A DNA stretch of 64,000 bases from an uncultured Gammaproteobacteria bacterium (lineage in GTDB: Bacteria; Cyanobacteriota; Vampirovibrionia; JBFMGH01): assembly GCA_964517135.1 (NCBI GenBank), contig CAZFBA010000008.1, positions 40,064 to 104,063 of the forward strand. The letters are read 5' to 3'. Below, one piece after another: positions 3,902-53,872 of this stretch. The notes beneath the pieces were generated by a model that made no database searches, was not told where the DNA came from, and was given only the letters and a program-made list of their open reading frames with translations. The first letter of the stretch is position 1. Each line of letters opens with the position of its first letter. The translations under genes were made by a program, and so were the position numbers.

Positions 3902-4501
3902 TTAATTGTCTTCTATATCACCATCAAAAATATCATCATCAAGGTCATCTTCATATTCTGGAGATGTATAACCTTCGGTGTCAAATTCTTCCGGGAGATA
4001 CTGGCTATCTGGCCATATTGTAAACTTGTCAAATCGTGATTGAGGAAGATTGTATGATCCGGAAAGGTCTGTATCTGTCAGGTCTGCTTCTCTCAGGTCG
4101 GCTCCATTCATGTTGGCTTCAGTGAAATCAGCTTCTATAATAGTTGCCCCAACCAGAATTGTGCCGCTAAGGTTTGAATTATTGAAGTTACAGTATTGCA
4201 AACTGGCGTTAGTAAAGTTAGCAGAAGATAAATTAGTGCTTGTAAGGTCAGAAGAATCGAGGTTGCTGTCGCTGAAGTCTGTTCCGGTTAAATCTGTTCC
4301 ATGTAAATTAATCCCATTGAGATTTAAACCCTTGAAATCTACTTCTGACAGGTCTAAGTCAGTTATTTCATTCTCTTCTATTAGTTTATTAAAACCGTCG
4401 ACGTTCTCGTTAAGAGCTAGTTGAATTAATTCGTCTTTAAAACTGGTCATACATTTCTCCTGGACGTAGCTATTAATCGAATAAATCTCTTTAAACTGCA
4501 A
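3902..4501 (-). CDS. Pentapeptide-repeat protein with acidic C-terminal tail
   Basis: 199 aa; tandem pentapeptides (LSEVDFKGLNLNGINLHGTDLTGTDFSDSNLDSSDL...) followed by a D/E-rich tail (EYEDDLDDDIFDGDIEDN). Confidence 0.85.
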   Translation of the reverse strand: MQFKEIYSINSYVQEKCMTSFKDELIQLALNENVDGFNKLIEENEITDLDLSEVDFKGLNLNGINLHGTDLTGTDFSDSNLDSSDLTSTNLSSANFTNASLQYCNFNNSNLSGTILVGATIIEADFTEANMNGADLREADLTDTDLSGSYNLPQSRFDKFTIWPDSQYLPEEFDTEGYTSPEYEDDLDDDIFDGDIEDN

Positions 4502-4799
4502 AAAACGGTTTTTGAAGATTATAAAGCGTTTTTGTTTCTACTTAAATTATCTGATATTAAGATATTTTACAGTTGAAAAAGGTTTAGTCTTACAGTATTG
4601 TGCATGAGAACCGTAATCATTTTATGGTTGAACCTTTTCCATGAATTATAATATCAGATAATTGCCTATTTTTATCGAAATTTTTTAAAAAATTTTAGGA
4701 ATTTCACGTAGTTTGATCCTTTACAATGGCTGCTATAATAAATGATGTGAAACTAGAAGTGGTTAATAAAATAAGTTCTTAAATTTTTCAGGAGCGATA

Positions 4800-5837
4800 A
4801 TGTTTGATTTAAAGACATTTTTACCTGTTGATATCTGTAAATGTAAGATTAGAAGAACTTTGTGGCTTCTAAAAAAAAATATGTTGCCTTTTGTTCTGCT
4901 TAAGCTGGTTATTATTCTGGTAGTTTTTTCTCATGATGCTTTTTCTATGAATAATCTAACAAATGCTGGTCTCGTTGCTTATATGCAGCAAGACTATAAG
5001 CGTGCACTGACCTTTCTTTCTCAGGCAGTAAAGGAAAATCCTTATGATGCTGATGCTCTATATTATTTTGCAAATACGCTTGTTAAACTTCATAGAGTTG
5101 AAACTGCTGAAAAATACTATAGAAAAGTTATAGAAATATCTCCTGATTCAGTATTTGCAGAGTATTCATTACAGGCCCTTTATGACATACACAATTATAA
5201 AACATCAATAAGACTTCCTTATGATAGCTTATTGCTTAAAGGCAGCAAGCTTTATACTTCTGAAAATTCGTATATTCATAATATTGTTGAAAATCCGCCT
5301 ATAATTCGATGGGATAAGCTTACTATGCCATTGAAAGTATATATTAATGAGCCTCACTTTAAAGAACATGAAAGCTACATCAGAGATGCGTTTGATCAAT
5401 GGTCTGATATGTCTGATGGTCTGGTAGATTATCAGGTTGTTACTTCTGTAAACAATGCTCATATAGTTGTCCACTGGCGAAAAAACCTCTTAAGTGACTT
5501 TAAAAATGATTTTTACGGTTATGTAGCTCCAGAAATAGAAGGTAATGAGCTTATTAAATATCATATTTATCTTCAGGAATATGGCAGAGATGGTAAGTTG
5601 CTTGATCCTGTTAGAGCCCGTGCAGCAGCAATGCATCAGGTCGGGCACAGCCTGGGGATAACCTATCACAGTGACAGTGAAAAAGACATCATGTATGTTG
5701 AGCCTCTTGAGCCACGTATAACAAGAAGGGATCTCTCTACATTGAATTTAATTTATGCGTTTGATCCTGACATCTCAAATTTTCAGGAAGCCCTTGAAAT
5801 AAAGACTAAAAAAGAAGCTGAAGAAGAAAATGATTAG
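4800..5837 (+). CDS. TPR-containing protein with C-terminal matrixin-like (metzincin) domain carrying HQxGH in place of HExGH
   Basis: 345 aa; ATG with GGAG 5 nt upstream. N-terminal hydrophobic segment and TPR-like helices (ALYYFANTLVKLHRVETAEKYYRKVIEISPDS). C-terminal AMHQVGHSLGITYHSDSEKDIMYV resembles the matrixin HEFGHSLGLSHS...Met-turn. Confidence 0.6.
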   Translation: MFDLKTFLPVDICKCKIRRTLWLLKKNMLPFVLLKLVIILVVFSHDAFSMNNLTNAGLVAYMQQDYKRALTFLSQAVKENPYDADALYYFANTLVKLHRVETAEKYYRKVIEISPDSVFAEYSLQALYDIHNYKTSIRLPYDSLLLKGSKLYTSENSYIHNIVENPPIIRWDKLTMPLKVYINEPHFKEHESYIRDAFDQWSDMSDGLVDYQVVTSVNNAHIVVHWRKNLLSDFKNDFYGYVAPEIEGNELIKYHIYLQEYGRDGKLLDPVRARAAAMHQVGHSLGITYHSDSEKDIMYVEPLEPRITRRDLSTLNLIYAFDPDISNFQEALEIKTKKEAEEEND

Positions 5838-5895
5838 TAAGTGCAAGAAATGCCTGAATCTGAATGTTAAAAACCAGGATAGTTAAGTGTAGAGC

Positions 5896-7842
5896 TTATC
5901 TGTTTTCTGGTAAAGGTTTAATATTGCTGAAGAATATTTTTGCTTCTTCCATTGACCTTATTATAGTCGTTTTGGGCAGGCTGTTGAGTATAATTTGTCC
6001 GTATGATTTACTGAGTAATCTTGGATCCAGCAGGCATACCATTCCACAGTCGGTTTTAGATCGTATCAATCTGCCGAATCCCTGTTTGATTTTTAAAGTT
6101 GCCTCCGGTAGCATGTATTCCATAAACCAGCTCTGGTTATTTGCTTTCATTCGATCGACAGTCGCACTTACAATAGGGTCATCAGGGACACTGAAAGGTA
6201 TTTTGTCAATGATGACACAGCTTAAATCCTCTCCTGGTATGTCGATACCTTCCCAGTAGGTTGCAGTGGCAAAAAGTATGCTGTTATCAGTTTCTTTAAA
6301 CCATTCTATGAGCTTTTTACGGGGCAGATCACCCTGTACTTTGCAGGGGTATATTGTCTGTTCTATGACAGCAGAACTGACATTCTTCATGGCATACTTA
6401 CTTGTAAAGAGGACGAGTGCCCTTCCTTCTGTTATGGTTGTTATTTCCTGTATGGCTCTGGCAATAGTTGCGTTATATTCAAAAGAGTTAGGAGCTGCTT
6501 TAATTTGAGGGAGCATTAGTCTTGACTGACTGGAATAATCAAACGGGCTATCCAGTATCAGGTCTTCGGCTTCAAGACCGAGCTGGTTTTTTGTATAGTC
6601 ACAGTTTTTGTTTATTGCCAGTGTTGCACTGGTTAATATTGCTGGAACATCACTCCATAGCTGTTCTTTAAGTGTTTTTGCTATGAAGATAGGTGCAGAG
6701 TTAATTTCAAAGCTCAGCTTGTCTTTATTTGTCTCTGCCCAGTTAACTCTAATGTCTTCTTCATCTTCAAAGTCAGTGTAAAGGAAGTATTCCCAGCGGC
6801 TGATCAGGTTAGAAGTTTGTGAGAGTAACCTGTCTTTGTGAGACATTTTTTTATGTTTGCTATCTTCACCGAATAACTCTAGCTGATCAAGTTCAAGCTC
6901 GTTTAGCCAGGTTCTTAGTTTTTTGAGCTCATCTATTTCATCATTGACCAGTTCAAAAAAGCTGCTATCAGGGAATATCCTGAATGAATCTTTCCCTTTA
7001 GAGAACAGCCACGATAATATTTCTGTTTCAATAGATGCTATACTTGATGTAATATTATCAGGTACTGGACCTACTCTCTTTTGAATTTTTTGTAAAAGCT
7101 TTGTTGATGCCCATTTCCCGATAGTGATTGTGAAAGCCTTCGTTGCAATATTTTTAATATGGTGTGCTTCATCGAAGATAACAAAGTCATGGCCGGGTAA
7201 AATGGTTCCGCCACCTGAAAGATCTGTGAAATAAAGGGCATGATTGGCAACAATGATATCTGAATCTGCCAGCTCAGAACGGGCTATTCTAAATGGACAA
7301 TCAGAAAAGTAGTCACAACGCTGGTTAAGACAATCATCTTTGTCAGAGTTTATTTCTGCCCAGAGCAAATCAGGTACTACGAAGTCAAGCTCTGCCAGAT
7401 CTCCATTCCATTTTTTATCTACAAGTTTCTCCAGCTTCTTTATAACTTTACCTTCTCTAGATTTTGGAGAGACACTGCGCTGTGTATCAAAGTATTTTAA
7501 TAGGCATAGATAGTTTCTTCTTCCCTTTGCAAGAGTATATTTAAGGTCGGGGTTACATTTTTCCACGACAAATGGGATATCTTTGTTTAGTAACTGTTCT
7601 TGCAGTGCAATGGTTCCAGTAGATATAACGATTTTTAATCCTGAAATAGCAGCAGGTATAAGGTATCCAAATGATTTACCAGCACCGGTTCCGGCTTCAA
7701 TGACCAGGCTGTTTCTCTTTTCGAGGTTTTTGTTGACTGCTTCAGCCATAGTAATTTGCTGTGGCCGGGCTTCATATGTGTTTAATTTAGTGACTGCTTC
7801 ATTGAAAATTTCTTTTATCTGTGATATTTCCTGTGTTGCCAT
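5896..7842 (-). CDS. dinG: DinG/Rad3-like ATP-dependent DNA helicase
   Basis: 648 aa; Walker A EAGTGAGKSFGYL, DEAH-type box VIFDEAHH, Cys cluster CLNQRCDYFSDCPF typical of Fe-S XPD/DinG helicases, C-terminal helicase motifs. Confidence 0.8.
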   Translation of the reverse strand: MATQEISQIKEIFNEAVTKLNTYEARPQQITMAEAVNKNLEKRNSLVIEAGTGAGKSFGYLIPAAISGLKIVISTGTIALQEQLLNKDIPFVVEKCNPDLKYTLAKGRRNYLCLLKYFDTQRSVSPKSREGKVIKKLEKLVDKKWNGDLAELDFVVPDLLWAEINSDKDDCLNQRCDYFSDCPFRIARSELADSDIIVANHALYFTDLSGGGTILPGHDFVIFDEAHHIKNIATKAFTITIGKWASTKLLQKIQKRVGPVPDNITSSIASIETEILSWLFSKGKDSFRIFPDSSFFELVNDEIDELKKLRTWLNELELDQLELFGEDSKHKKMSHKDRLLSQTSNLISRWEYFLYTDFEDEEDIRVNWAETNKDKLSFEINSAPIFIAKTLKEQLWSDVPAILTSATLAINKNCDYTKNQLGLEAEDLILDSPFDYSSQSRLMLPQIKAAPNSFEYNATIARAIQEITTITEGRALVLFTSKYAMKNVSSAVIEQTIYPCKVQGDLPRKKLIEWFKETDNSILFATATYWEGIDIPGEDLSCVIIDKIPFSVPDDPIVSATVDRMKANNQSWFMEYMLPEATLKIKQGFGRLIRSKTDCGMVCLLDPRLLSKSYGQIILNSLPKTTIIRSMEEAKIFFSNIKPLPENR

Positions 7843-14737: not shown

Positions 14738-15421
14738 CTAAACTAAACCATCTTTTAGCGCTTTTATTGCTGCTTGTGTTCTGTCATCTACAGACAATTT
14801 TTGAAGTATACTGCAAACATGCGCTTTAGCGGTATGTATACTAACTACGAGGTGTTTGGCTATTTCAGCATTTGAGTTCCCGTCAACCAGTAATTTTAAG
14901 ACTTCTAGTTCTCTTTCAGTTAGCTGGGCTTTCTCATGTGGGCTATCTTGCTGGGATGGTAGAGCTGATTTCTTGATAGGCCTGCTGGAAATGTTTTTCA
15001 ATACAATGCTGGCTATGGCAGGGTCAAGCCATGCAGCACCATCATATATGGATTGTACTACGTGTATTAGTCTATCAGGTTCGATATCCTTTAGGCAATA
15101 AGCATTGGCGCCCGAGCTGAGAGATGCCCATACTTCTTCTTCGTTATTGTGTGATGTTAGTATAATTACTTTAGTGTTTTCATTAGCTGCTTTTATTTTT
15201 TGCGTTGCTTCAATACCATTTATGCCAGGCAGGCCAAGATCCATGAGAACTATATCAGGCATAAGCTCTTGTGCAAGGGTTACTCCTTCTTCACCTGTTT
15301 CTGCTTCTCCTATCACCTCGATGTTATCAGCTTCTCCAAAGGCTGTTTTTAACCCAAATCGGGTTAGTGTATGATCTTCAACCAGTATAATACTGATTTT
15401 TTTGCTTAAAGTTTTGCTCAT
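14738..15421 (-). CDS. Response regulator, NarL/LuxR family (REC + HTH)
   Basis: 227 aa; receiver domain (ILVEDHTLTRFG...DIVLMDLGLPGINGIE) and C-terminal LuxR HTH (LTERELEVLKLLVDGNSNAEIAKHLVVSIHTAKAHVCSILQKL). Start overlaps the kinase stop (TAATG). Confidence 0.85.
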   Translation of the reverse strand: MSKTLSKKISIILVEDHTLTRFGLKTAFGEADNIEVIGEAETGEEGVTLAQELMPDIVLMDLGLPGINGIEATQKIKAANENTKVIILTSHNNEEEVWASLSSGANAYCLKDIEPDRLIHVVQSIYDGAAWLDPAIASIVLKNISSRPIKKSALPSQQDSPHEKAQLTERELEVLKLLVDGNSNAEIAKHLVVSIHTAKAHVCSILQKLSVDDRTQAAIKALKDGLV

Positions 15422-32637: not shown

Positions 32638-33165
32638 ATGGTATGCATTATGAGTGTAACAATTTCATTTAGTTCAAGTGTAAAAATCGAAGAGCGGATA
32701 AATTTATCTGAAGACTATGTGGAAAGGATATTGCAGTCGCTGGCAGAGCTTATATTTTCTGACTCTCAGATTATAGCTATGTCTGATTTTAGTGATTCTC
32801 TGGAGGATGAGGATTTAGAAGCAGAAATTGGTTTTTATTTCTGTGATGACGAAGAAATGCAGGAGTTAAACTTAAAATATCGTGATTTAGATGCTCCAAC
32901 AGATGTTCTGTCATTTTCAATGCAGGATGAAGATACCTCTGTTGATCTGCCGGTTTTTTCTCTTGGTGAAGTTATTATTTCTACGGATAAACTGGCAGAG
33001 CAGGCACGGCAAAATGAACATTCAAACCTCAATGAGCTTATTATTCTTGCCAGCCACGGTGTCCTTCACCTGCTTGGTATACACCATGAAACGAGTAAAG
33101 AGCTCCACGATATTCTGGATATACAACAAAGGCTTCTTGAAGCCATTCTGGATTATTATGAATAG
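32638..33165 (+). CDS. ybeY: rRNA maturation endoribonuclease YbeY
   Basis: 175 aa; zinc-binding SHGVLHLLGIHHE motif (H..LHL.G.DH) near the C-terminus; acidic N-terminal segment; start uncertain. Confidence 0.8.
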   Translation: MVCIMSVTISFSSSVKIEERINLSEDYVERILQSLAELIFSDSQIIAMSDFSDSLEDEDLEAEIGFYFCDDEEMQELNLKYRDLDAPTDVLSFSMQDEDTSVDLPVFSLGEVIISTDKLAEQARQNEHSNLNELIILASHGVLHLLGIHHETSKELHDILDIQQRLLEAILDYYE

Positions 33166-33166
33166 C

Positions 33167-34891
33167 CTATTTCAATGACTCTGCCCATGCCAGCATAAAC
33201 ACCAGCGGGGCATTATAGTCAATAGCATATTCATTGGTGGCATAAGATTTTTTGTTATCAATATAGCTTTTTATTTTCAGTCCAGGTATTGCGACATTAT
33301 CATTTGCTGTATCGTTAGGGCCTCCAACCATAAAGCCAGGTAGTGTTTCTCCTGTTGCCATCATATAGCGATGATGTATATTTTGAGGTGGGTTGTCACC
33401 CAGGCCTGTTACAAAAGACTTATTAAGCGGGTTGCACCCAAATACATAGTTGATTGTTTTTAAACCATAATCTTTGTAAATGACTTTGCCTGTTAGTTTA
33501 TAGGCATATGCTAGTGTGATACCTTCGCTTAAAATCGTAGCGTTTGAAGCCCACCTGAATTTATCCATGGGTATAAAATAAGGGTTAGAGCTCATTTGGG
33601 CAACAATATTGCTGGCATTTTTTATTATTAGTTGTTTCATTGATTCTTTAAGCTGTAAATCTTTACAGTCGCTGGTTGCTATTTCAATAATGCCCATAAT
33701 AGCCGTGTTTTTCCAGGAAAAATGATCATAATCGACCCGGTCAACATTATTTTTAAAGTAATTGAGATAGGCAGGATCTTTTGTGGCCAGATATAATTCG
33801 GCTGAAGCCCAGACAAGTTCGTCCTGATCGCTGTAGGCAAAGCGTTCAGTGTCATAGTTAGGATCAGGATATCCACCGGAACCGCTGTTATCAGAAGACT
33901 GATAATCAGTATTGTTTGGGAATGTTATCATGTGATTCCAGGCTTTTATGGCTGCATTTAGATATTTGTCAGAGCTTTCAGTATTGTAGTTTCTGAATAT
34001 TCTTGATGCTTTTGCCATGGTGGCAGCGAATTTACCTGTTTCCTGGCTAGATATGCCATATATATACCGTTTTTGAGTGTCATCCTGTGCGAGTGTGGTA
34101 TCAGAAGGCCAGTTTTCTCCTGAACATTTTCTGTATACTGCGCCGTCTTCCCTTTGCAATTTTAGCATCCAGTCAAGTGCATAGCGGGTTTCTTCCAGTA
34201 TATCAGGCAAGTCAGAGTCATTATCCTTATAATACATATGTATTTGTTTTGTCTCAGTATTTATTTCGCTGGTTGCCATTAGCAGTGCAGCTGCTATTGT
34301 AGTAGAAGCTATATATTTCCCGTAGTCACCAGCATCATGCCAGCCACCCGTAGCATCTATCTTTGTTTCAGCTGTATTATAGCTGTCTGTTCTTTTTATG
34401 TAACCGTCATTTCTGTGGCATGGTGGATGTAGTAAAGTGTTATTTTTGTATTTGACTTCTCTTCCACAATTCTGAAGGTAAAAAGTTGATGTAGTAAGCT
34501 TTAGTGCTGTATTATAGATCCTGTATTCTATTCTGAAATCAAAGGATCTGTTGTTTTTATACTTTATAAAATAGTCACCAGGTGTCTTAAGGCTATCAAA
34601 TGTAATTTTACTTACTTTATTACCTGTGAATTTGTCAATTATTGGTTGATGAATTTCAGCATTCATAATGACTTTATTGGTTTTAGATTCTATTATCTCT
34701 GCAATGCCGGCATTACCAGGATTCTCAATCAGAGCATATTTTTCAGTTGAAGGATAATACCCGATCTGGTTTACGTATATCTCCTGTGCTATTGTGTTAT
34801 TTAATACGCATGAAACCCATAAGCCGGCTGTTAAGAAGGCAGTTATGAATATTATGAAGTTCTTTGAGCGTTTCTGTAACATATTGGTCAA
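33167..34891 (-). CDS. Glycoside hydrolase family 9 endoglucanase with N-terminal Ig-like domain
   Basis: 574 aa with signal peptide. IDATGGWHDAGDYGKY GH9 signature, N-terminal Ig-like domain (YVNQIGYYPSTEKYALI), C-terminal catalytic-region motifs. Confidence 0.85.
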   Translation of the reverse strand: MTNMLQKRSKNFIIFITAFLTAGLWVSCVLNNTIAQEIYVNQIGYYPSTEKYALIENPGNAGIAEIIESKTNKVIMNAEIHQPIIDKFTGNKVSKITFDSLKTPGDYFIKYKNNRSFDFRIEYRIYNTALKLTTSTFYLQNCGREVKYKNNTLLHPPCHRNDGYIKRTDSYNTAETKIDATGGWHDAGDYGKYIASTTIAAALLMATSEINTETKQIHMYYKDNDSDLPDILEETRYALDWMLKLQREDGAVYRKCSGENWPSDTTLAQDDTQKRYIYGISSQETGKFAATMAKASRIFRNYNTESSDKYLNAAIKAWNHMITFPNNTDYQSSDNSGSGGYPDPNYDTERFAYSDQDELVWASAELYLATKDPAYLNYFKNNVDRVDYDHFSWKNTAIMGIIEIATSDCKDLQLKESMKQLIIKNASNIVAQMSSNPYFIPMDKFRWASNATILSEGITLAYAYKLTGKVIYKDYGLKTINYVFGCNPLNKSFVTGLGDNPPQNIHHRYMMATGETLPGFMVGGPNDTANDNVAIPGLKIKSYIDNKKSYATNEYAIDYNAPLVFMLAWAESLK

Positions 34892-39725: not shown

Positions 39726-42536
39726 TTATGTTTCCTGTTTGACAGGGATTACTATTGTGAAAGTGCTTCCTTTGCCGGGTTTGCTATCAACAAGTATCTG
39801 GCCTTTGTGCTTTTCAATGATTTGATAGCAAATTGATAGGCCCAGGCCCGTTCCAACTCCTACGCCTTTGGTAGTAAAACCTGGGTCAAATAGCTTTTTC
39901 ATGTGTTCTTCGCTGATTCCTGATCCTGTATCACTTATTGCAACAGAGACACTGTTGTTTATACAGCTGGTAGATATACTTATTGTACCTTTGTCAGTAA
40001 TACTCTGGTAGGCGTTGATTATTATGTTCATAAATACCTGATTTAGCAGGTTGGGATAGCATTCTATGGGTGGGAGATCGCCATACCGGGTATTGATATT
40101 TATTTTATCCTTTAGCTCATGCCGGATAAGCTGAAGAGTACTTTCTATTCCTTCGTGGATATTGACTGTTTTCAGATCTGACTCATCAAGCCTTGCAAAG
40201 TTTTTAAGGCTCTTAACAATCTCTTTTATTCTGTCAGTGGCCAGTATATTAATTTTATTTGTCTCATCTATTAGTGATACCAGCTGTTTTATTTTGTTGA
40301 TATCTGCTATTTCTTCTGAAAGTGCTTTCTGTATTTTATCTGTGCATTTCTTAAAAATACTGTTGTTAGAGGCAATTGAACCGACCGGTGTATTTATTTC
40401 ATGGGCTACACCAGCAACAAGCTGACCCAGTGATGCCATTTTTTCTGATTGTATGAGTTGAGCTTGTGTTTCTTTTAGCTTCTTTAAGGTTATTTCTAGT
40501 TCAGTTTTTTGTTTTTGTGTCTGTTCAAAAAGTATAGCCTGACTTACTGTTACTGTTATCTGGTCAGTTAGTATTTTAAGAAGATTTAAATCATCTGTAT
40601 GCCAGTCACGCTGTGCTGAAGCATCAGCAATAATTATGATACCTACTTCTCTATCCTGGTGTGTGATGGGGTCTTTTATATTTACAGGTGTCAGCAGGAT
40701 CGTATTAACAAGATTATCTTCCATAAAGCTTTTTATGTCTTCAGAAAGAAGCTTATCTGTTTGTTTCCATATAGTGATATCTCTGTTTTTAAGTGTATCA
40801 GTATTAAGTTTATCTTCAAGAAAACTCTCAAAATTGCTGTTAATGGAACTTTTATCATTGTTACTATATTCATAGATTGAATATTCTCTATTAGCTTCGC
40901 TGTAGTACCTGAAAAGGCAGTGTTTTACATTAAGTGTTTGGCCTAATTCTTTAACCGTAGTGTTTAAGACATCTTCAATTTTTAGAGACTTTCTGATAGA
41001 GCTGACAATTTGATTTATAAGTGTTTCTTTAAGAGCCTGAGTTTGTGTTTTCCAGTATAATTTAGCATTTTCTACTGCTATGGCAATCTGACCGGCTATT
41101 TGAGACATTATTTCGATGTCTGAGTCTGAATAACGGTTTTCTATCTGGCTGCCAACATAAAATATACCTGTAACTACCCCTTTGTTGATCATGGGTATTA
41201 TTATAGCTGACTTGATACCGCTTTTTTTTAATAGTGTTGTATCAGTAAACTGCTCATCATTGCTGATATCTAACATGACAGGCTTGAGATTATCGATGGC
41301 CCAGCTAATGGCGCTTCCGCTTATGATCAGAGGGCCAGTTCTTAATATATCTACCTGGCCGGTGTTTTTGATACGGGCAAAGAGTTTTATCTGTTGTGAT
41401 TTTTCATCAAGAGTGGCAATGCTGGCCCTGTCAAACTCTATAAGTCTTCTTATTTCTCTTCCGATGGTTTTCAGGACATCATCGATTATGAGCGTAGAGT
41501 TTACAGATTTTAAAATTTCATTTAGTACTGATATCTTGATGTTTTTAGATGTAGTATCTTCAAAAAGCCTGGCGTTTTTAATTGATATTGATATCTGATC
41601 TGCAATAGATTGAACCAGATTTATTTCTTCCGGGTGCCAGTCTTTATTTTTTCTGATTAGTAAGAGTATTGCAAAAAGTTCTTCATGGTGTATTACAGGT
41701 ACTATGAGCTTGTATTTTGTTGCCTGTATTTGATTTCCGGGATCTGTATGGATTCCAGTTGCAGGTCTATGAGTATCGAGCACTTCTTGCATATAGAAAT
41801 CGTTGTTGATATTAATTGTCTGGTTTAGATGTTCTGTTTTCCCTGATACTGTATATTCCTGTGTTATTGGCAATTCTGTTTCTCCTGGTATATTCTTGAT
41901 GAGTAGGGTGCTATCGGTGCCCAGGGTTTTACCAAGTTCTTTAACAGAGGCCTGAAGTATTGTATCTATTTCCAGTGAAGTTCTTATGGATGTTGCAATC
42001 TTGTTTACCAGTGATTCTCTTATTGCCTGTGATTGTGCCTGTGACTTTAGCTGTTCATTCTCTTTGATTTTTTCTTTTAATTTCCTGTTAGTTTCTTCCA
42101 GATCTTTATAGGCAATGTTGTAGTCTTTTAGAATCTTTTCTGAGAATGTTATGAGATAACCTGTATTCTCTATATAGTATGATTTAATTGTATAAAGTAA
42201 CTTGATGTCAGGTGAATATTCATATTCTGCTTCAATTGTACAGTTAATAGGGCTTTCAAGTATTACTGTAAAAGGAGAATAGTTTGCAATATCTATGGAA
42301 TCATCTAATATACAGCTCTCAAAGTTGAATAGAAAACCTGAATCTCTTAGATTGTGAGATCCTTCCTGTAATATATTTTTTGCAGCATTGTTAGCATAAA
42401 GAATATCACCATCTGGGCTTGAAATTATTACTATATCTTTTAATCCATCGATAAAATTATTCAGCCAGTTTTCTTTTGTCACTGGTTTTGCAGCTATTTT
42501 ATCCAAGAGGTTTTTCAGTATACTTTCTGTGTTCAC
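39726..42536 (-). CDS. Cytoplasmic multi-sensor histidine kinase (PAS/GAF repeats + HisKA + HATPase)
   Basis: 936 aa without obvious TM segments; N-terminal PAS-like region, at least two GAF-like modules separated by coiled-coil linkers, H-box region VAHEINTPVGSIA, ATPase motifs DTGSGIS and GTGLGLSICY. Confidence 0.85.
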   Translation of the reverse strand: MNTESILKNLLDKIAAKPVTKENWLNNFIDGLKDIVIISSPDGDILYANNAAKNILQEGSHNLRDSGFLFNFESCILDDSIDIANYSPFTVILESPINCTIEAEYEYSPDIKLLYTIKSYYIENTGYLITFSEKILKDYNIAYKDLEETNRKLKEKIKENEQLKSQAQSQAIRESLVNKIATSIRTSLEIDTILQASVKELGKTLGTDSTLLIKNIPGETELPITQEYTVSGKTEHLNQTININNDFYMQEVLDTHRPATGIHTDPGNQIQATKYKLIVPVIHHEELFAILLLIRKNKDWHPEEINLVQSIADQISISIKNARLFEDTTSKNIKISVLNEILKSVNSTLIIDDVLKTIGREIRRLIEFDRASIATLDEKSQQIKLFARIKNTGQVDILRTGPLIISGSAISWAIDNLKPVMLDISNDEQFTDTTLLKKSGIKSAIIIPMINKGVVTGIFYVGSQIENRYSDSDIEIMSQIAGQIAIAVENAKLYWKTQTQALKETLINQIVSSIRKSLKIEDVLNTTVKELGQTLNVKHCLFRYYSEANREYSIYEYSNNDKSSINSNFESFLEDKLNTDTLKNRDITIWKQTDKLLSEDIKSFMEDNLVNTILLTPVNIKDPITHQDREVGIIIIADASAQRDWHTDDLNLLKILTDQITVTVSQAILFEQTQKQKTELEITLKKLKETQAQLIQSEKMASLGQLVAGVAHEINTPVGSIASNNSIFKKCTDKIQKALSEEIADINKIKQLVSLIDETNKINILATDRIKEIVKSLKNFARLDESDLKTVNIHEGIESTLQLIRHELKDKININTRYGDLPPIECYPNLLNQVFMNIIINAYQSITDKGTISISTSCINNSVSVAISDTGSGISEEHMKKLFDPGFTTKGVGVGTGLGLSICYQIIEKHKGQILVDSKPGKGSTFTIVIPVKQET

Positions 42537-46977: not shown

Positions 46978-49230
46978 TTAATAGAAATTGACGACTTTTT
47001 TAGCTTCTTCAGCGCCTTCTGTGCTGCCTGTGCTGAACAGGTTCAGGTATTGATCTAAGCTGCCGCTTTCTTTCCAGCTGAAGTTTTCCTGCATAGCGTT
47101 GTAAGCAATTTTATTGAAGCTTTCAGGCTTATTATAGAACATTCTGATGGCATCTTTAAGTGATTGATTATAGCTTCTGGCTGATTTTTGGAGGTTTTGT
47201 TTGGATGCGGCTTTGTCTCCAGGCACTTCAGGAACGTATTCTTTTGACAGGAAGCCTGTTTTACCATCAACAATAGTATTTGATAACCCTCCAGTTGGTG
47301 TTGCGACAGGTATGTTACCTTTTGCCATGGCCTGTAGTTGCCCCAGACCGCAGGGTTCAAATTTACTGGGCATAATGAACATATCGCCAGCAGCCTGAAT
47401 CATATGCATTAGGTCTACGCTGAAGGCGTTCATAAATACGACACGCTTTGATAATTCGGGCGGTAATTGTTTTTTAAGGGCATTTAATTTGTTTTCATCT
47501 CCACCATTACCGAGAATAACAACTACTGGTAGTGGTTTAGTTTTGTCTACTGGCCTTGTTAAGACATTTCTAATAGCAGCAGCTGTCAGGTCAATGCCTT
47601 TTTGGCCTTCAAGACGGCTAACCATGGTTAATAAAGGTGTCTTTTCAATTTCACTTTCTTTTAAAAATTCAAGTTTGCTGCCGTCTGTAGATTTAACACC
47701 CAGGTATTTTTCATCTTCAAAGGCTCCCTGTTGAAGCAGTTTGATGAAAGCCTTTTTGTTGTGTGTTTTTGCTTCAATAAAGTCTTCTAAAGATGTTTGC
47801 CTGCTGTATAATTTAAATTCAGGAAGGTCTGTTTTGCCGCTCTGCTCTTTGTATGCGGCTAGCTTGCCATAAACTTTCTTTGCCAGTCCTCCGTCAGGGG
47901 CGATACCGCCCTGTCCGATACCATTGACAATACCAGTGAGGTTGCCTGCTTTGTGTCTGCTATCAAGCACACTGACAAAGTCATAGCCGAAGAATTTGTC
48001 TGTGGCTATTTCTCTGGCATAGTTTGGAGAAACAGCTATTACTGCATCAGCAAGTGCCAGGCCGTGAATAGCAGCATTGTAAGTGTCTCTTACCATAACA
48101 GATTTTGGTGAAGGGTATTTCTGGAGGTTCTTTTTGCCGCCTTCTACGATTGATTCAGTCATATTGGGCATATAGGAGTTTGTGAATACACTGTCTGCAT
48201 AGTCTTCATATAGCATATTGAGTATCTTTGAAGTGTTTTTATTATCCCAGCCCTGATATTCAAGGTTATGAACAGTGTAAACAATGGGCAATTCTTTCAG
48301 TTCATTAGCAATATTCTGGCTTATACCGTCTTTATTGGCAGCTTTAGCGGGCATTAAGACTTTTAATTGAGCTGCCAGCGGACCGGCATGCCAGTCATTT
48401 GCATCGATGACATTTGGTGCATCTTCAGGATTCGTTTCTTTAAGTTCTTTAATATAATATGCAGTGGCTTTTGAGAGGAATGCAAATCGTTCAGACTCTT
48501 CTACGCCTGATTTATTTTTTATGTATGGTGTTACTTTTTTCCCATCATTGGGAAGCCCACCGAAAAATTCTTCATTTTGCAGGAACCTGTACTCTGTTCC
48601 GTTTAGTTCACCCTTTAAGACTCTAACTGTTGTAGATTTACCATCACCTATCGGGACGTTTACTGCAACACCTGTATCAACCAGGTTGATTGATCCACCC
48701 ATAGGCTTGCTGGTATAAGTATATGTACCATTTTTGTTGTCAGTTAATTTAACAAGATCGCCGCTTTCATAAAGTGGCTGTACGATGGTCATTTTAGCAC
48801 CCTGACTGTTAAATTCTTTGTTGAAGGCTTCAGGTAGGTCTACAGCAACGTCACCAAGGCCGCCAGTTTTCATGAATGTTTTTGTTTCAGAAGTTACCAT
48901 CCATACGTTAGGCGTTGAAACATTCCAGGAGGGCTTTGATGTTATTTGTGATGATGCAATACCCCTTACTTCAGGCACCATTTCCTGTGGGATTCTCTTT
49001 GATGAGTTGAGTTCTAATTTATAATTCGGATAAGTCTTTACTTTGCCGTCGTTTTGGGGTTTTGCGCCAAAAGAAATAAAGTTCAAGTATCCTAAAAAGT
49101 TTAAATCACCGGCTGATTTCTGCTGAATGGTTTCTTGTACTGGTTTATGGGCATTTTGAAATGGGTTTGCTTTGAAGGCTGGGCCTGTGGTGACCTTCTT
49201 TGCCGGGAAGATAGTGTTATTGATATCCAT
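46978..49230 (-). CDS. glgA: Glycogen/starch synthase-like GT5 glycosyltransferase, unusually long (750 aa)
   Basis: KTGGLGDV motif (FMKTGGLGDVAVDLPEAF) and C-terminal MPSKFEPCGLGQLQAMAKGNIPVATPTGGL (cf. SRFEPCGL..Q..A...G..PV...TGGL). About 110-aa N-terminal extension, internal insertions and a long C-terminal tail. Confidence 0.7.
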   Translation of the reverse strand: MDINNTIFPAKKVTTGPAFKANPFQNAHKPVQETIQQKSAGDLNFLGYLNFISFGAKPQNDGKVKTYPNYKLELNSSKRIPQEMVPEVRGIASSQITSKPSWNVSTPNVWMVTSETKTFMKTGGLGDVAVDLPEAFNKEFNSQGAKMTIVQPLYESGDLVKLTDNKNGTYTYTSKPMGGSINLVDTGVAVNVPIGDGKSTTVRVLKGELNGTEYRFLQNEEFFGGLPNDGKKVTPYIKNKSGVEESERFAFLSKATAYYIKELKETNPEDAPNVIDANDWHAGPLAAQLKVLMPAKAANKDGISQNIANELKELPIVYTVHNLEYQGWDNKNTSKILNMLYEDYADSVFTNSYMPNMTESIVEGGKKNLQKYPSPKSVMVRDTYNAAIHGLALADAVIAVSPNYAREIATDKFFGYDFVSVLDSRHKAGNLTGIVNGIGQGGIAPDGGLAKKVYGKLAAYKEQSGKTDLPEFKLYSRQTSLEDFIEAKTHNKKAFIKLLQQGAFEDEKYLGVKSTDGSKLEFLKESEIEKTPLLTMVSRLEGQKGIDLTAAAIRNVLTRPVDKTKPLPVVVILGNGGDENKLNALKKQLPPELSKRVVFMNAFSVDLMHMIQAAGDMFIMPSKFEPCGLGQLQAMAKGNIPVATPTGGLSNTIVDGKTGFLSKEYVPEVPGDKAASKQNLQKSARSYNQSLKDAIRMFYNKPESFNKIAYNAMQENFSWKESGSLDQYLNLFSTGSTEGAEEAKKVVNFY

Positions 49231-49537
49231 TGCCTTACTCCGTATTGTGAAGATAATTTGTTTTTTTGACCTCTAATGGGGGATACTTTTTTAAGGGTTG
49301 TAAATATGTCATTGTGCTAAATTCCCTCCAATGAGTTACATTTTGTTACACCCTGGAGCAGTTCTTTTTGAAGGCTTTTGTGAAGTAATACATACGTATT
49401 GATAACCATTTGCCTTAATACCACAAAATTATCATTTGATAGAACTTTTATATGTTAATATTTTTGCCTTATTGCCAAAACTGAGATAGAGTTTTAATGA
49501 TCCTGTAAAGAGTTTGAGGGGTGAAAACAGTCTGATT

Positions 49538-51646
49538 ATGAGTGAATTGACCATAGAACAATTACTTGATGAGTATTTAAATAACCGGCTTGATAATGTT
49601 ACTGTTGAAGAGGTCTCGAAACATCTTGATGACCCGGATCCTTTGAAAAGAAGAGTTGCCCTGGAGTTGTTGTATAATCTGACCGGTGATGCCAATTACT
49701 TAATGAAGATTATGCCATTGTTACAGAATGATGTTGCGGCCTTGTGGGATTTCTTGAATGATTATTGCTCATCACTCAATGATAGATTTGTTGTTTCAGT
49801 GCTTATTATGGAGGCCTTAAAGTATATTGACCCGGTTAAAGAGCATGAAAAAGCAGGAAGCATACTTTTTAACTGGCGTCAATTAAACCCGCCTTCTTTA
49901 TTTTTGCCGGATGATGTTGAAGATGCGTCGAAAATTAAAGACCTTGAAGTTGTTTCTCTGCCTGTTATAGCGAATGTTCTTGCTAACTGGATAGCTCTGG
50001 GTGTCAAGCAGTTACCATTTTCAGAATTTCATTATTTCCCGTACTTTTTGGCCAATCATTCAGGTATCAAACTAACGATACCAGAACAGTATTTGAATGC
50101 AATCAGCGAACTGCCGGATAAATTCAGGTCTCATTATGACCTGGGTGTTATGGCAGTCATTCATTCAGACCTCAAAACTGCTAATAAGCATTTTATTGAA
50201 GCAGCCAGAGAAATCCTCTCACGGGATGACCCGGCAAATGCCTTCAATATAGTGGCTAAGTGGCATACCTTTGCCGGACCGTTTCTTAATAAACACCCTG
50301 ATCTACTGGCAGACCTTGAAGATATACTCTGGAAAGTTATTCATGAAGTCTATATAAGAGAATCTGAATCACTTCAGGTCTTTGTAATGTCTATCTTTCT
50401 CTATTGTGATATAGCCTCAAAGCTTATAGGATACAGCCTGTTTAACTATCAACACATACTGGAACTCTCTGAACTCTTTGAAAAGAAAATTTTATTCTTT
50501 AAAATGATCAAGCATATTGAATTTAAACATGAAATTAAACCTAAAGACAACCTTAATATCGGTTTTATTGCATTTAGTCTAAATGAAGGCCCTGCAGGAT
50601 CTATTGTTAACAACTTTATAAGACATCATGATAAATATAAATTCAAGATATTTTTCTATGATTGTGGCTTTGCTCCTCAGATAACAGCTCTTAACCTGAA
50701 TGAAATGCAAAAACATGCTACTGTCAGGCTGCTTGAATATCAAAACCATGATGAAAAGATACTGGATGCAGTAAATTTTGCTTCTCAAATTCACGAAGAT
50801 CAAATAGATATACTGATTTATCTGGACTGGCTGGTGAACCCTGTAGGTCATGCAATTTGTTGCCTGAAACCAGCTCCACTGAATGTCAAGATAGATCTTG
50901 TGGGAATAACTTCTGGCCTATCAAAAATACCTTATATGATTGATTATCTGGGGATTGCAAAAGATAGTAACCTGCCCTTTACTGAAGAATTAATAGAAAT
51001 GCCCCTTACTTTTCCTATGCCAGAAGAAATAGAGAGCTTTGATGGTATAAGTTCTGCTATACTGGGCAATAAAACACTTATGTATTCCTTTGTGGCCCCT
51101 GAGAACCTTGAAACTGAAGACTTTAAAGAAGCTATTGTTAAGATACTTGCCAGAAATCAAGATGCTCACTTTAGTTTTTCATCCAGATGTGATGTCAGGC
51201 CAGTATTATCATATTTTGATGTTGCCGGAGTTGCTGATAGAGTGACCTATCTGGGTACTGATAGTTCGAGGAAGACTGTCTGTGAAAATATCAGGTTATG
51301 TGACATTTACCTAAATCCTTATCCTCTGTCAGGGCGTTCAGATGTATATTATGCAATGACCAGGGGTAAGCCTGTTGTTGCGCTGTCTGGTACTAAAGAT
51401 GATTTACTGGCAAAAAGAATTGGGGCTAAAATTTTAAATGAGCCTGATATTATTGCTCAAAATTATGATGAATATGTTGAAAAAGCTTCCAGATTGATTC
51501 AGTCGCCTGATCTTCGATCTGAAACAGGTAACAGGCTTGCTGAAAGGGCCAGTAACGAATTTAATTCTGATAATGTTGTTAAAAAGCATGAAGAGCTATA
51601 CAGAGAGCTTTATAACCGGCTTGTTTCTGAAAAATCTTCAGTATAA
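49538..51646 (+). CDS. Putative glycosyltransferase with OGT/SPINDLY-like (GT41-like) C-terminal domain and helical N-terminal domain
   Basis: ATG at 49538 (track ORF starts at TTG 49514, overlapping a GAGGGG SD). C-terminal half (NIGFIAFSLNEGPAGS...KFKIFFYD...LKPAPLNVKIDLVGITSG...DIYLNPYPLSGRSDVYYAMTRGKPVVAL) resembles GT41 O-GlcNAc-transferase catalytic domains. By-eye alignment only. Confidence 0.45.
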   Translation: MSELTIEQLLDEYLNNRLDNVTVEEVSKHLDDPDPLKRRVALELLYNLTGDANYLMKIMPLLQNDVAALWDFLNDYCSSLNDRFVVSVLIMEALKYIDPVKEHEKAGSILFNWRQLNPPSLFLPDDVEDASKIKDLEVVSLPVIANVLANWIALGVKQLPFSEFHYFPYFLANHSGIKLTIPEQYLNAISELPDKFRSHYDLGVMAVIHSDLKTANKHFIEAAREILSRDDPANAFNIVAKWHTFAGPFLNKHPDLLADLEDILWKVIHEVYIRESESLQVFVMSIFLYCDIASKLIGYSLFNYQHILELSELFEKKILFFKMIKHIEFKHEIKPKDNLNIGFIAFSLNEGPAGSIVNNFIRHHDKYKFKIFFYDCGFAPQITALNLNEMQKHATVRLLEYQNHDEKILDAVNFASQIHEDQIDILIYLDWLVNPVGHAICCLKPAPLNVKIDLVGITSGLSKIPYMIDYLGIAKDSNLPFTEELIEMPLTFPMPEEIESFDGISSAILGNKTLMYSFVAPENLETEDFKEAIVKILARNQDAHFSFSSRCDVRPVLSYFDVAGVADRVTYLGTDSSRKTVCENIRLCDIYLNPYPLSGRSDVYYAMTRGKPVVALSGTKDDLLAKRIGAKILNEPDIIAQNYDEYVEKASRLIQSPDLRSETGNRLAERASNEFNSDNVVKKHEELYRELYNRLVSEKSSV

Positions 51647-51652
51647 GATGAA

Positions 51653-53872
51653 TTAGACTCTTTTAACGGATATAGCCTTTTCTGTGGGTTCTATTTCCTG
51701 TAGAACCTGTGCTTTTGCTATTGCTACTACGAAATGTATCTCTTCATTTTTATTAACATTTAGTTCTTTAAAGGGTATTGCAAGTTCTATTACGGAGCTT
51801 GCTGCTACTTTTGTGTTTGTTTGGGGATGTATTTTCCAAAGATTGTTTTCAGTTGCTTCTGACAGGGTTGTTTCTATGTGGTTATCCTTTGGGGATATGT
51901 ATATTTCGTAGGCATATTTATATTTAAGTGTTTCAACAAAATTCTCAGACAGCGTCCTGATTCTTACAGGGCTGTTATCTCTTGCTTTGCCCGGGTTGTA
52001 TGCATATATATAGGTGTCATATTCTTTATTTGAGATAGAGTGGGTAGTATCAATTCTTATGTTAAGATGATCTCTATCGAAGCCAAACCATATTCGTCTT
52101 AGCAGGCGGTCACTTTGATACATTGCTCCTGACTTGAACTCTATTACACCGGCTTCTCTCCATTCGTCCTGAGTGTCTGCTTCTCCGTTGATGCTGGGTG
52201 TAAACCATGCAGAAGGGTATTTAAGTGATCTACCAAGGTATACCTCTACCGGTACAAATAATTTTGTTGGTATAGGTTCATTTAAGACACGATAGACATT
52301 CTGAAGGTGTAGCCTGAACTGTTCGTCAAAGAGGTCATCCTGCGCAGAGAAGTTAGGGTCACCGTACCACCAGAACCAGTCAGAGCCTTCAGCTATATAG
52401 AGCTCTTCCCAGGCTTTTTCAATGGTTTCAGTGTCGTAATCATTTTCTTCTATCAGCCTGATAAGGTCATCCCGGGTGTTTTTCAGGTATTGCCAGCCAG
52501 TGTTTTTAGCGGGATCACCTATCCAGATGTGAAAATCTCTATTTATCCAGGAGCCAGAATGGATGTTTTGAAGGGTTCTGGCTGGCGGATTTTTTTCAAG
52601 GTATTCACTGACAGTACAGACATCAATAGATGTATCTTCACTAAGTCGAGTATAGAGGTTTTTCAGGAATGGTATACCGTCAAGATCATAGTATTCCCAG
52701 CAGTTTTCACCATCCAGCGCAATGGTAACAAGGTGGTTGTCGGTTGAGTGAGAGAGTTTATCCTGTACATCTTTTATGCGGTCATAGAGTTCCCAGGCGG
52801 CTTGTTTGGGATCCATTTTGCCCAGTTGAAAGCCGATTAGGTCTGAGTAGACCACGTTTCTAAAAATCATGTCTACGGTTTTACCGTCGATGTTGATTTT
52901 ATAGGGCTGGCATAGCTCTTTAGGTTTTTCAAGATTGCCATAGAAGTTTCTATGAAAGTCTTTTCCCAGTGATGCAGATAGAACTCCTTCATCGGAGATA
53001 GCCCACTGTATTCCTTCATCAGCCATTAACTTAATGGTTTCAGGGCTGACAGACTGTTCGGATGGCCACATGCCTTTTGGATGTCTGCCGAATAGTTCTT
53101 TATACTTTTTAACAGCTCTTTTTACATGTATTTTTGCATCTTCAGGGTGTTGAAAAGGTTTTTCTGGTAGCTGCATTTCGGGCCGGGCAATTTGTGCTGC
53201 ATTTGTATCAATCAACAACGGCAGTATCGGGTGATAGTAAGGACTAATGGTGACTTCTATCTGTCCTTTTTCTTGATAAGCTTTATAGGCTGGTATTATT
53301 TCGCTGATGATTTTTCGTTGAATTTGTAAAAGTTGTTTTCTTTGCTCTAGTGAAAAGTTTTTTTCTTGCTTTACAAAGCTTTTTAGTTCTGGTATCTCGC
53401 TAATCCAGCGTGGGTCAAACCAGACAAGATTAAACCACATTATAATATCTGCATATTCCTGGCTGGAAAAGTTATCTATATTTGATCCGGCGCTGAGTGT
53501 CTTGTTTCGCTGGTAAAGGCTGTGGTAATATGCATTTTTGGCAATCATGTTTTGATAATTAGCATCGAAAAAACGTTCCAGAATGAAGATTTTATCATCG
53601 TTGGTGAACTCTTCTTCTGGTTTAATCATTAGTATTGAATGTTGATCATGGGCTTCGTTATAAGCATAGTCGTTAAGTTGATCTACTAAAGAAGGTACTA
53701 TATTAAACGTTTGCCTTATTTCAGGGTAATCTTCAAGAATTAATACCATATCAAGGTAGTCTTTGATGGCATGCAGACGTACCCATGGCATGAAATACTT
53801 TCCTGTTAGGTGATCTTTATAGAGTGGTTGATGCATATGCCATACAAAAGCGACGGATAACTTTTTGGCCAT
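51653..53872 (-). CDS. Glycoside hydrolase family 57 (alpha-glucan-active; branching enzyme / glucanotransferase-like)
   Basis: 739 aa; N-terminal FVWHMHQPLYKD signature of GH57 (HQHQP-type), catalytic-region acidic residues, long C-terminal helical/beta extension. Confidence 0.75.
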   Translation of the reverse strand: MAKKLSVAFVWHMHQPLYKDHLTGKYFMPWVRLHAIKDYLDMVLILEDYPEIRQTFNIVPSLVDQLNDYAYNEAHDQHSILMIKPEEEFTNDDKIFILERFFDANYQNMIAKNAYYHSLYQRNKTLSAGSNIDNFSSQEYADIIMWFNLVWFDPRWISEIPELKSFVKQEKNFSLEQRKQLLQIQRKIISEIIPAYKAYQEKGQIEVTISPYYHPILPLLIDTNAAQIARPEMQLPEKPFQHPEDAKIHVKRAVKKYKELFGRHPKGMWPSEQSVSPETIKLMADEGIQWAISDEGVLSASLGKDFHRNFYGNLEKPKELCQPYKINIDGKTVDMIFRNVVYSDLIGFQLGKMDPKQAAWELYDRIKDVQDKLSHSTDNHLVTIALDGENCWEYYDLDGIPFLKNLYTRLSEDTSIDVCTVSEYLEKNPPARTLQNIHSGSWINRDFHIWIGDPAKNTGWQYLKNTRDDLIRLIEENDYDTETIEKAWEELYIAEGSDWFWWYGDPNFSAQDDLFDEQFRLHLQNVYRVLNEPIPTKLFVPVEVYLGRSLKYPSAWFTPSINGEADTQDEWREAGVIEFKSGAMYQSDRLLRRIWFGFDRDHLNIRIDTTHSISNKEYDTYIYAYNPGKARDNSPVRIRTLSENFVETLKYKYAYEIYISPKDNHIETTLSEATENNLWKIHPQTNTKVAASSVIELAIPFKELNVNKNEEIHFVVAIAKAQVLQEIEPTEKAISVKRV

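Follow-up and report, generated by a model that had tools for sequence, protein, structure and literature searches.

A stretch of 64,000 nucleotides from an uncultured Gammaproteobacteria bacterium (GTDB lineage Bacteria; Cyanobacteriota; Vampirovibrionia; JBFMGH01), corresponding to positions 40,064 to 104,063 of the forward strand of contig CAZFBA010000008.1 (assembly GCA_964517135.1) and referred to here as the window, encodes a protein that joins N-terminal tetratricopeptide repeats (TPRs) to a matrixin (M10)-like metalloprotease domain. The complete gene (4800..5837, forward strand) appears in the open reading frame list with 345 codons and a stop. The M10-like domain has kept its three zinc-ligand histidines and its Met-turn methionine, and carries glutamine in place of the glutamate that serves metzincins as general base. 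Glutamate is absent from this position in all seven members of the clade to which the protein belongs, and the features by which inactive zincins are recognized, namely retention of the family fold, loss of an essential catalytic residue and conservation of that loss among orthologs, are found together here. The protein probably acts as an exported, non-cutting module that binds peptides or proteins and is tethered by its TPRs to a partner, in the manner of an adaptor, a decoy or a natural substrate trap.

Matrixin fold and zinc site

The preliminary description of this DNA, made from the sequence alone, had recognized a matrixin-like motif and Met-turn by eye and proposed comparison with Peptidase_M10 models and structure prediction as checks, both of which bear it out. 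The window protein matches Peptidase_M10 (PF00413) with 30.4 bits against a curated gathering cutoff of 24 (E 4.3e-7, residues 173-300), and orthologs score 24.3, 30.1 and 35.9 bits with the same model. TPR proteins aside, its best solved sequence relative is karilysin, the matrix metalloproteinase (MMP)-like protease of Tannerella forsythia, which is matched with an E-value of 4e-6 from the single sequence and of 2.4e-9 from a four-ortholog profile. An AlphaFold2 (AF2) model computed from a 150-sequence family alignment (mean predicted local distance difference test score, pLDDT, 88.9, and above 90 across most of both domains) presents a metzincin catalytic fold, together with a hydrophobic N-terminal helix (28-44) and an extra acidic C-terminal helix, and a Foldseek search with this model again retrieves karilysin (E 5e-7, template modelling score 0.70). 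The resemblance to matrixins is far above chance. The fold search matched metzincin proteases only, among them the glutamate-to-glutamine mutants proMMP-2 E404Q and MMP-9 ("active site mutant" entries), and on this ground the idea that the domain has the fold of YbeY or of some other non-protease was rejected.

In the AF2 model, the M10-like domain (residues 158-322, 5271..5765) is predicted to comprise, in order, b1 (178-182), aA (188-204), b2 (211-214), b3 (222-227), b4 (240-247), b5 (250-259), aB (270-284) and aC (309-320). The active-site helix aB bears H279, Q280 and H283 and is followed by H290, M298 and aC, so that the three histidines are predicted to lie on or just after this helix, with the Met-turn behind them. 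The zinc-site motif, H279-Q280-V-G-H283-S-L-G286-I-T-Y-H290, occupies 5634..5669, with the codon for H279 at 5634-5636, and belongs to the peptide AMHQVGHSLGITYHSDSEKDIMYV (residues 277-300), which also includes the Met-turn methionine M298 (5691..5693) within D296-I-M-Y. HMMER pairs HQVGHSLGITYHS with the karilysin segment HEIGHLLGIE-HS and the following MY with the karilysin Met-turn MY; this alignment establishes both the exchange of glutamate for glutamine and the insertion of one residue before the third histidine. The reading of glutamine at the general-base position is thus upheld (Q280, CAG, 5637-5639). The additional residue, which gives HxxxHxxGxxxH instead of the canonical HExxHxxGxxH spacing, was also correctly noticed, but it is no anomaly and no defect of the window protein, because three residues between the glycine and the third histidine are the usual family spacing (129 of 147 motifs, against 18 with the canonical two, among the best 150 relatives). 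H279, H283 and H290 align with the karilysin zinc ligands, show no variation in the clade and reach 100% conservation in the family. With G286, also constant in the clade, they make up a set conserved to at least 98% across the family, and M298, likewise invariant in the clade, is methionine in 98% of the family.

Other metal-binding and regulatory elements of MMPs are missing. The structural-zinc site (His, Asp, His and His in the S-loop) and the calcium sites are not present: the karilysin ligands H68 and H83 pair with L231 and Y239, which leaves two of the four ligands missing, and H255, the counterpart of karilysin H99, is not conserved among orthologs. The mature protein (residues 50-345) contains no cysteine and consequently has no cysteine switch of the PRCGxPD prodomain type. 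The closest matches in both sequence and structure remain karilysin (PDB 2xs3, 4in9, 4r3v) and the catalytic domains of vertebrate MMPs (MEROPS M10A, PF00413), with which the window protein shares the five-stranded sheet, the three helices and the Met-turn, the RW-x4-(M)PL(K)VYI strand, aA, a W-rich sheet, the H-x-x-x-H-x-x-G...H-S...M-Y pattern and an aC helix with a conserved aspartate. Like karilysin, it is also predicted to be exported. It differs from both in the glutamine, the extra residue, the two lost structural-zinc ligands and the lack of a cysteine-switch prodomain, and in bearing an N-terminal TPR module where these proteases have a propeptide or a hemopexin domain.

The same motif scan also caught a second glutamate-less zinc site in the window, that of a YbeY endoribonuclease gene (32638-33165, forward strand; PF02130, 106 bits), whose HGVLHLLGIHH motif is a natural H-x3-H-x5-H site.

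Ortholog clade and wider family

A search with the C-terminal 210 residues as a single sequence returned 3 proteins, and the exhaustive and four-ortholog profile searches revealed the family and, within it, a clade of seven (P0001, the window protein, with P0002, P0004, P0005, P0153, P0154 and P0155). Pairwise identity among its members is 36-53% over the M10-like domain, and all have a single architecture, in which an AxA-type signal peptide and roughly 2.5 TPRs bearing a YYFANTLV motif are followed by an LYxS(E/V)NSY linker, the M10-like domain and a C-terminal acidic tail. Their residues at the catalytic position are, in the order listed, Q, H, Q, Q, Q, Q and Q (glutamine in 6/7, histidine in 1/7, glutamate in 0/7). 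An alignment of orthologs had been proposed as a way to learn whether the glutamine is conserved; the absence of glutamate holds throughout, and the glutamine itself is not strict. Since one ortholog has histidine, the conserved trait is better stated as a neutral polar residue of similar size that is not glutamate, and it is to such residues that position 280 is restricted in the clade. The corresponding codons in the five orthologs with DNA sequence are CAG, CAT, CAG, CAG and CAA, each a single substitution away from a glutamate codon, in genes whose synonymous sites are saturated (proportion of synonymous differences, pS, 0.6-0.8). Residues and codons under such saturation indicate that the glutamate was replaced long ago and that the replacement has been maintained.

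The gene is under purifying selection, and the substitution is kept in intact orthologs, with no decaying pseudogene among them. Nonsynonymous divergence (dN) is about 0.5, well under the saturated synonymous divergence (dS), a comparison that is semi-quantitative only because of that saturation, and 33 of the 165 domain columns show no variation in the clade. The protein nonetheless evolves faster than its neighbors, given that it is about 48% identical to P0002 and the flanking genes are 68-90% identical. All five clade members for which synteny was checked (P0001, P0002, P0004, P0005 and P0153) occupy the same genomic slot. On the larger contigs this slot lies downstream of RelA/SpoT, a thioredoxin-reductase-like gene, an acylphosphatase and a pentapeptide-repeat protein, and upstream of a convergent DinG-like helicase, YibE_F and RuvB; on the short contigs of P0005 and P0153 the immediate neighbors alone are visible.

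A comparison of the first four clade members with the 198 family domains that bear HExxH places the changes in a narrow region. The clade retains nearly every position that is strongly conserved in the family, namely Y158, W171, P177, W201, G240, H279, G282, H283, G286 and H290, as well as S291, D296, M298, R310, D311, T314 and Y319. It departs from the family at E280, glutamate in 100% of those 198 domains and Q or H in the clade; at G289, directly before the third histidine, which becomes Y, A or S; at I/V254 on strand b5, which becomes Y or F; and through conservative shifts at 307/308. Such a pattern speaks for targeted remodeling of the active center, not for decay.

The wider family is large. 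A profile search run exhaustively against 1.84 billion cluster representatives recovered 4,032 relatives with E ≤ 1e-3, 1,580 of them with E ≤ 1e-10. Among the best 150, HExxH is found in 137 of about 147 motifs (about 93%) and Q, H, D, N or S replaces the glutamate in about 10, with a family motif of HExxHxxGxxGHS(P/D)xxxDIM(Y/F). The window protein is a member by its spacing, its signal peptide, its N-terminal TPRs and the residues that hardly vary in the family (Y158, W171, P177, W201, S291, D296, M298, D311, T314 and Y319), and its clade stands apart from the family by Q or H at the catalytic position and by the changes at positions 289 and 254. An N-terminal hydrophobic segment is present in 116 of 152 family proteins, and a phmmer count, which sets a lower bound, finds a window-like N-terminal TPR module in at least 59 of the 152. 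In species-representative genomes the family is concentrated in the Vampirovibrionales, Gastranaerophilales, Obscuribacterales and Caenarcanum (Vampirovibrionia/Melainabacteria), with some members in photosynthetic Cyanobacteria, Gemmatimonadales and other groups; 2-3 paralogs per genome are frequent, and no relative in these genomes exceeds about 35% identity to the window protein. NCBIfam holds no model for the family, and its members appear to be experimentally unstudied.

Glutamate has also been lost independently in several other lineages of the family. A second glutamate-less clade of 470-510 residues (P0059, P0128, P0100, P0098 and P0080) shows N, S, H, D and D at the catalytic position within a QH[N/D/D/H/S]xGH motif that keeps the histidine triad and the methionine, a spread that suggests relaxed constraint at this position, unlike the glutamine-dominated clade of the window protein. 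Further cases are P0115 with Q, P0044 with D and a Caenarcanum protein with HQMGH. The last of these, encoded at L058 107-1528 in a Ca. Caenarcanum metagenome-assembled genome (MAG), combines a signal peptide, TPRs and an M10-like domain; the domain is interrupted by about 60 inserted residues with a high content of Gly, Val and Ile (…IVQIGSIAAMVLGSLVGVPVIGMLGSVGGSVASPIL…), which resemble a segment that inserts into membranes. Two other variations were observed in the family. Some members of 580-765 residues (P0006, P0016, P0019 and P0021) contain two M10-like domains per polypeptide, both with HExxH in P0006. A subfamily of about 260-270 residues (P0003, P0007, L021, L023, L024, L030, L043, L044, L047, L050 and L053), drawn mostly from Gastranaerophilales and gut MAGs, begins at the conserved tyrosine without a signal peptide or TPRs, has the canonical HExxHxxGxxH spacing and a long C-terminal extension, and may be a cytoplasmic form of the family.

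Architecture and function of the glutamate-less protein

Outside the M10-like domain, the 345-residue protein consists, from the N-terminus, of a signal peptide, about 2.5 TPRs and a conserved linker, and it ends in an acidic tail. The signal peptide or N-terminal anchor (residues 1-49, 4800..4946) has a basic n-region, a 17-residue hydrophobic core that is helical in the AF2 model (28-44) and a small-residue c-region in which HDAFS is followed by MNN, with probable cleavage after HDAFS. All orthologs show n-, h- and c-regions with an AxA signal-peptidase site at the aligned position. In the P0002 gene, at L006 5941-6000, the annotated start is probably too far 3'; beginning instead at the in-frame ATG that lies 60 nt further upstream extends the protein by MLRNCNRKLKKLLLYLLCLL and yields a typical signal peptide ending in ...PYTLA ahead of KD. 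These N-termini, together with the TPR_2 (Pfam) match of 41.5 bits against a cutoff of 27 (residues ~55-125), agree with the earlier view of a TPR protein behind a signal or anchor segment, and the protein is predicted to be exported by the Sec pathway to become periplasmic or secreted. The TPR module (residues 50-136, 4947..5207) is modeled as helical hairpins, with six helices across residues 46-136. The linker (residues 137-157, 5208..5270) carries the clade-conserved LYxS(E/V)NSY, which runs into Y158. L151, S154, N156 and S157 are invariant across the seven members, and Y152, invariant in the first four, is phenylalanine in P0153. E155 was considered as a substitute base or ligand and rejected, as its replacement by valine in P0154 and P0155 shows that it is no obligatory metal ligand. 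The C-terminal acidic tail (residues 323-345, 5766..5834), delimited from the model and the ortholog alignment, is of low complexity, has a predicted helix at 328-344 and varies in length among orthologs.

In metzincins the glutamate of HExxH polarizes the zinc-bound water and passes a proton to the leaving amine, and exchange of this residue for glutamine is the usual route to inactive MMPs for crystallography. By this textbook mechanism, peptide hydrolysis at a site without the glutamate should be abolished or fall by orders of magnitude, which is the sense in which the domain can be called catalytically impaired, as the preliminary description had put it. As an adaptor, decoy or substrate trap, the protein would dock a partner through its N-terminal TPR module. 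Its C-terminal MMP/karilysin-like domain, with the three-histidine site and the Met-turn kept, would probably bind zinc. With the residue that polarizes the zinc-bound water and shuttles the proton gone, a peptide segment held in the cleft would remain uncut or be cut very slowly. Several points weigh against this reading. The same exchange in matrilysin is reported to lower kcat/Km by hundreds of fold without abolishing activity (Cha and Auld 1997), and slow proteolysis by a site with glutamine in place of glutamate is possible. The strict retention of the zinc site, with glutamine in 6/7 members, could equally mean that chemistry continues. The arrangement of the two domains is uncertain in the AF2 model (predicted template modelling score, pTM, 0.65), and the genomic context points to no partner protein.

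That the protein is still an enzyme, in which the intact zinc site and the conserved glutamine or histidine sustain a slow, specialized, highly specific or non-peptide hydrolysis of the YbeY type, is unlikely, even though the set of metal ligands is complete, the Met-turn, S291, D296 and D311 are still present and position 280 is held to Q or H without the drift (N, S, H, D, D) of the second glutamate-less clade. The YbeY of the window indicates that glutamate-less sites can be catalytic, and MMP-7 E198Q is said to keep measurable activity. However, glutamine is unable to act as a general base, glutamine and histidine are chemically too unlike for any single alternative mechanism to suit all orthologs, no invariant acidic residue near the site could compensate (E155 is valine in two members), and the fold matches proteases only, and not YbeY. 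It is distinctly unlikely that the His3-Gln site, instead of being a dead remnant, has been repurposed for ligand recognition or slow chemistry, either as a periplasmic receptor or decoy for substrates of the HExxH paralogs (2-3 copies in related genomes) or as a glutamate-independent hydrolase acting on a non-protein substrate.

A permanently latent, zymogen-like state, in which the TPR-linker segment with its LYxSxNSY motif would fill the cleft and shut out external ligands, leaving the TPRs alone to carry the function, is very unlikely. In its favor, conservation of the linker motif within the clade is strong, Y158 is shared by 92% of the family, and the linker forms short beta-strands in the AF2 model. 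Prokarilysin is kept latent by a short aspartate-switch propeptide, and the linker motif resembles the junction at which ...DNN meets Y, as reported for the karilysin zymogen. Yet the linker has no conserved metal-binding residue, E155 being variable and the mature protein free of cysteine, and its pLDDT is only 60-89. An artefact or a decaying gene, whether through sequencing error, pseudogenization or a chance HxxxH in an unrelated fold, is barely credible and was rejected. The lower identity of the protein than of its flanking genes (about 48% versus 68-90%) is what such an account would have in its favor, but 23 contigs from independent metagenomes encode an identical protein, all seven members of the divergent clade have intact open reading frames without the glutamate, dN stays well under the saturated dS, and the hidden Markov model, profile and fold matches are significant.

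Known systems offer parallels for a non-cutting matrixin. Substituted HExxH motifs are common across zincin families, in which glutamine is the commonest replacement for the glutamate and roles are mostly unknown (PMC3650047). ACE3, with HQXXH, is a glutamate-less zincin (PMC1925091), and for glutamate-less zincin pseudopeptidases roles as decoys, adaptors or binding proteins have been proposed (PMC1925091, PMC3650047, PMC11266112). The passages of a 2024 review of metallopeptidase pseudoenzymes retrieved by a term search contain no bacterial M10 example (PMC11266112). Natural zincins without the glutamate include ACE3 and non-proteolytic ADAMs (HQxxH, LQxxL), which are the classic cases, and substituted members of CLCA and other zincin families. 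Like ACE3 and the ADAMs, the window protein has exchanged glutamate for glutamine, kept its histidine ligands and conserved the change in orthologs, whereas ACE3, the ADAMs and CLCA belong to other families (M2, M12 and CLCA), are eukaryotic and carry other partner domains. Possible functional analogues in the Gram-negative envelope are periplasmic proteins built from TPRs, from TPRs with a protease or from dead hydrolases, namely BepA, the TPR adaptors NlpI and LbcA, and the degenerate LytM factors EnvC and NlpD. BepA pairs an M48 peptidase with C-terminal TPRs, unlike the M10-like domain and N-terminal TPRs of the window protein, which matches no M48 or BepA model. The M10-like domain has no homology to the M48 domain of BepA or to the M23 domains of EnvC and NlpD.

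Genomic context and significance

The gene is monocistronic and flanked by oppositely oriented housekeeping genes. It is preceded by a Shine-Dalgarno-like AGGAG (4790..4794, forward strand), seen by direct reading of the sequence 5 nt before the ATG, and, further upstream, by a conserved block (TTATAATATCAGATAATTGCCTATTTTTATCGAAA..., 4645..4690, forward strand) that contains a palindrome of the (T)GATATCA type and is a candidate operator or promoter element. This block of about 40 nt is about 85% identical to L006 5725-5770, where it likewise stands upstream of the gene of the 48%-identical ortholog. The palindrome, (T)GATATCA(G/A)AT, is found as TGATATCA or ATATCAGAT 5' of the gene in 4/5 orthologous loci, with counterparts at L079 ~5885-5905 and L080 ~884-895. 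Three orthologous loci also have a divergent LuxR/GerE-type response regulator gene (210 residues) between the pentapeptide-repeat and TPR-M10 genes (L006 5055-5687, L079 5220-5852, L080 182-814), and the palindrome block may be an operator for this regulator. In the window, the same slot (4502-4799) is a 298-nt spacer only; the neighboring LuxR-type regulator of the orthologs was not found in the 64 kb, the sole match there being 30% identical (14738-15421), and the window holds no active HExxH paralog of the TPR-matrixin. A scan for sigma-70 promoters and terminators around the gene gave no more sites than expected by chance.

Upstream of the gene, two pentapeptide-repeat paralogs (1109-1984 and 3902-4501, both on the reverse strand; ~30-36% mutual identity by tblastn) flank the thioredoxin-reductase-like and acylphosphatase genes, and the public gene calls record no Pfam match for either paralog. 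Neither an Rfam nor a tRNA scan gave a match in the window. Elsewhere the window encodes a GH9 cellulase with a CelD_N domain (33167-34891, reverse strand), a 750-residue starch/glycogen-synthase-like GT5 protein (46978-49230, reverse strand), a GT41 (OGT-like) protein (49514-51646, forward strand) and a GH57 enzyme (51653-53872, reverse strand), carbohydrate genes that fit a free-living, non-photosynthetic, polysaccharide-using organism.

Bacterial MMP-like proteins have barely been studied, and karilysin is essentially their sole structural reference. The present analysis describes a large TPR-matrixin family, unannotated, exported for the most part, distinctive in its zinc-motif spacing and centered on the Vampirovibrionia/Melainabacteria, whose annotation can be improved, as databases call its members just "TPR repeat protein" or "hypothetical protein". 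Because the exchange of glutamate for glutamine is common in zincins, the result is of use more than it is a surprise; its novelty lies in the setting, a bacterial TPR-matrixin family that has gone unstudied and that includes a clade in which an ancient loss of the glutamate has been maintained. If the window protein does function as a pseudoprotease, it would carry over to bacterial metzincins the concept of decoy and adaptor pseudoenzymes established for ADAMs, iRhoms and LytM factors, and it would provide a natural substrate trap for the targets of its active paralogs. Should it serve as a receptor or decoy, it would be the first bacterial MMP-like pseudoprotease with a regulatory role, and if the site has indeed been repurposed, the recurrent and independent loss of the glutamate across the family would mark a regulatory strategy that has evolved repeatedly.

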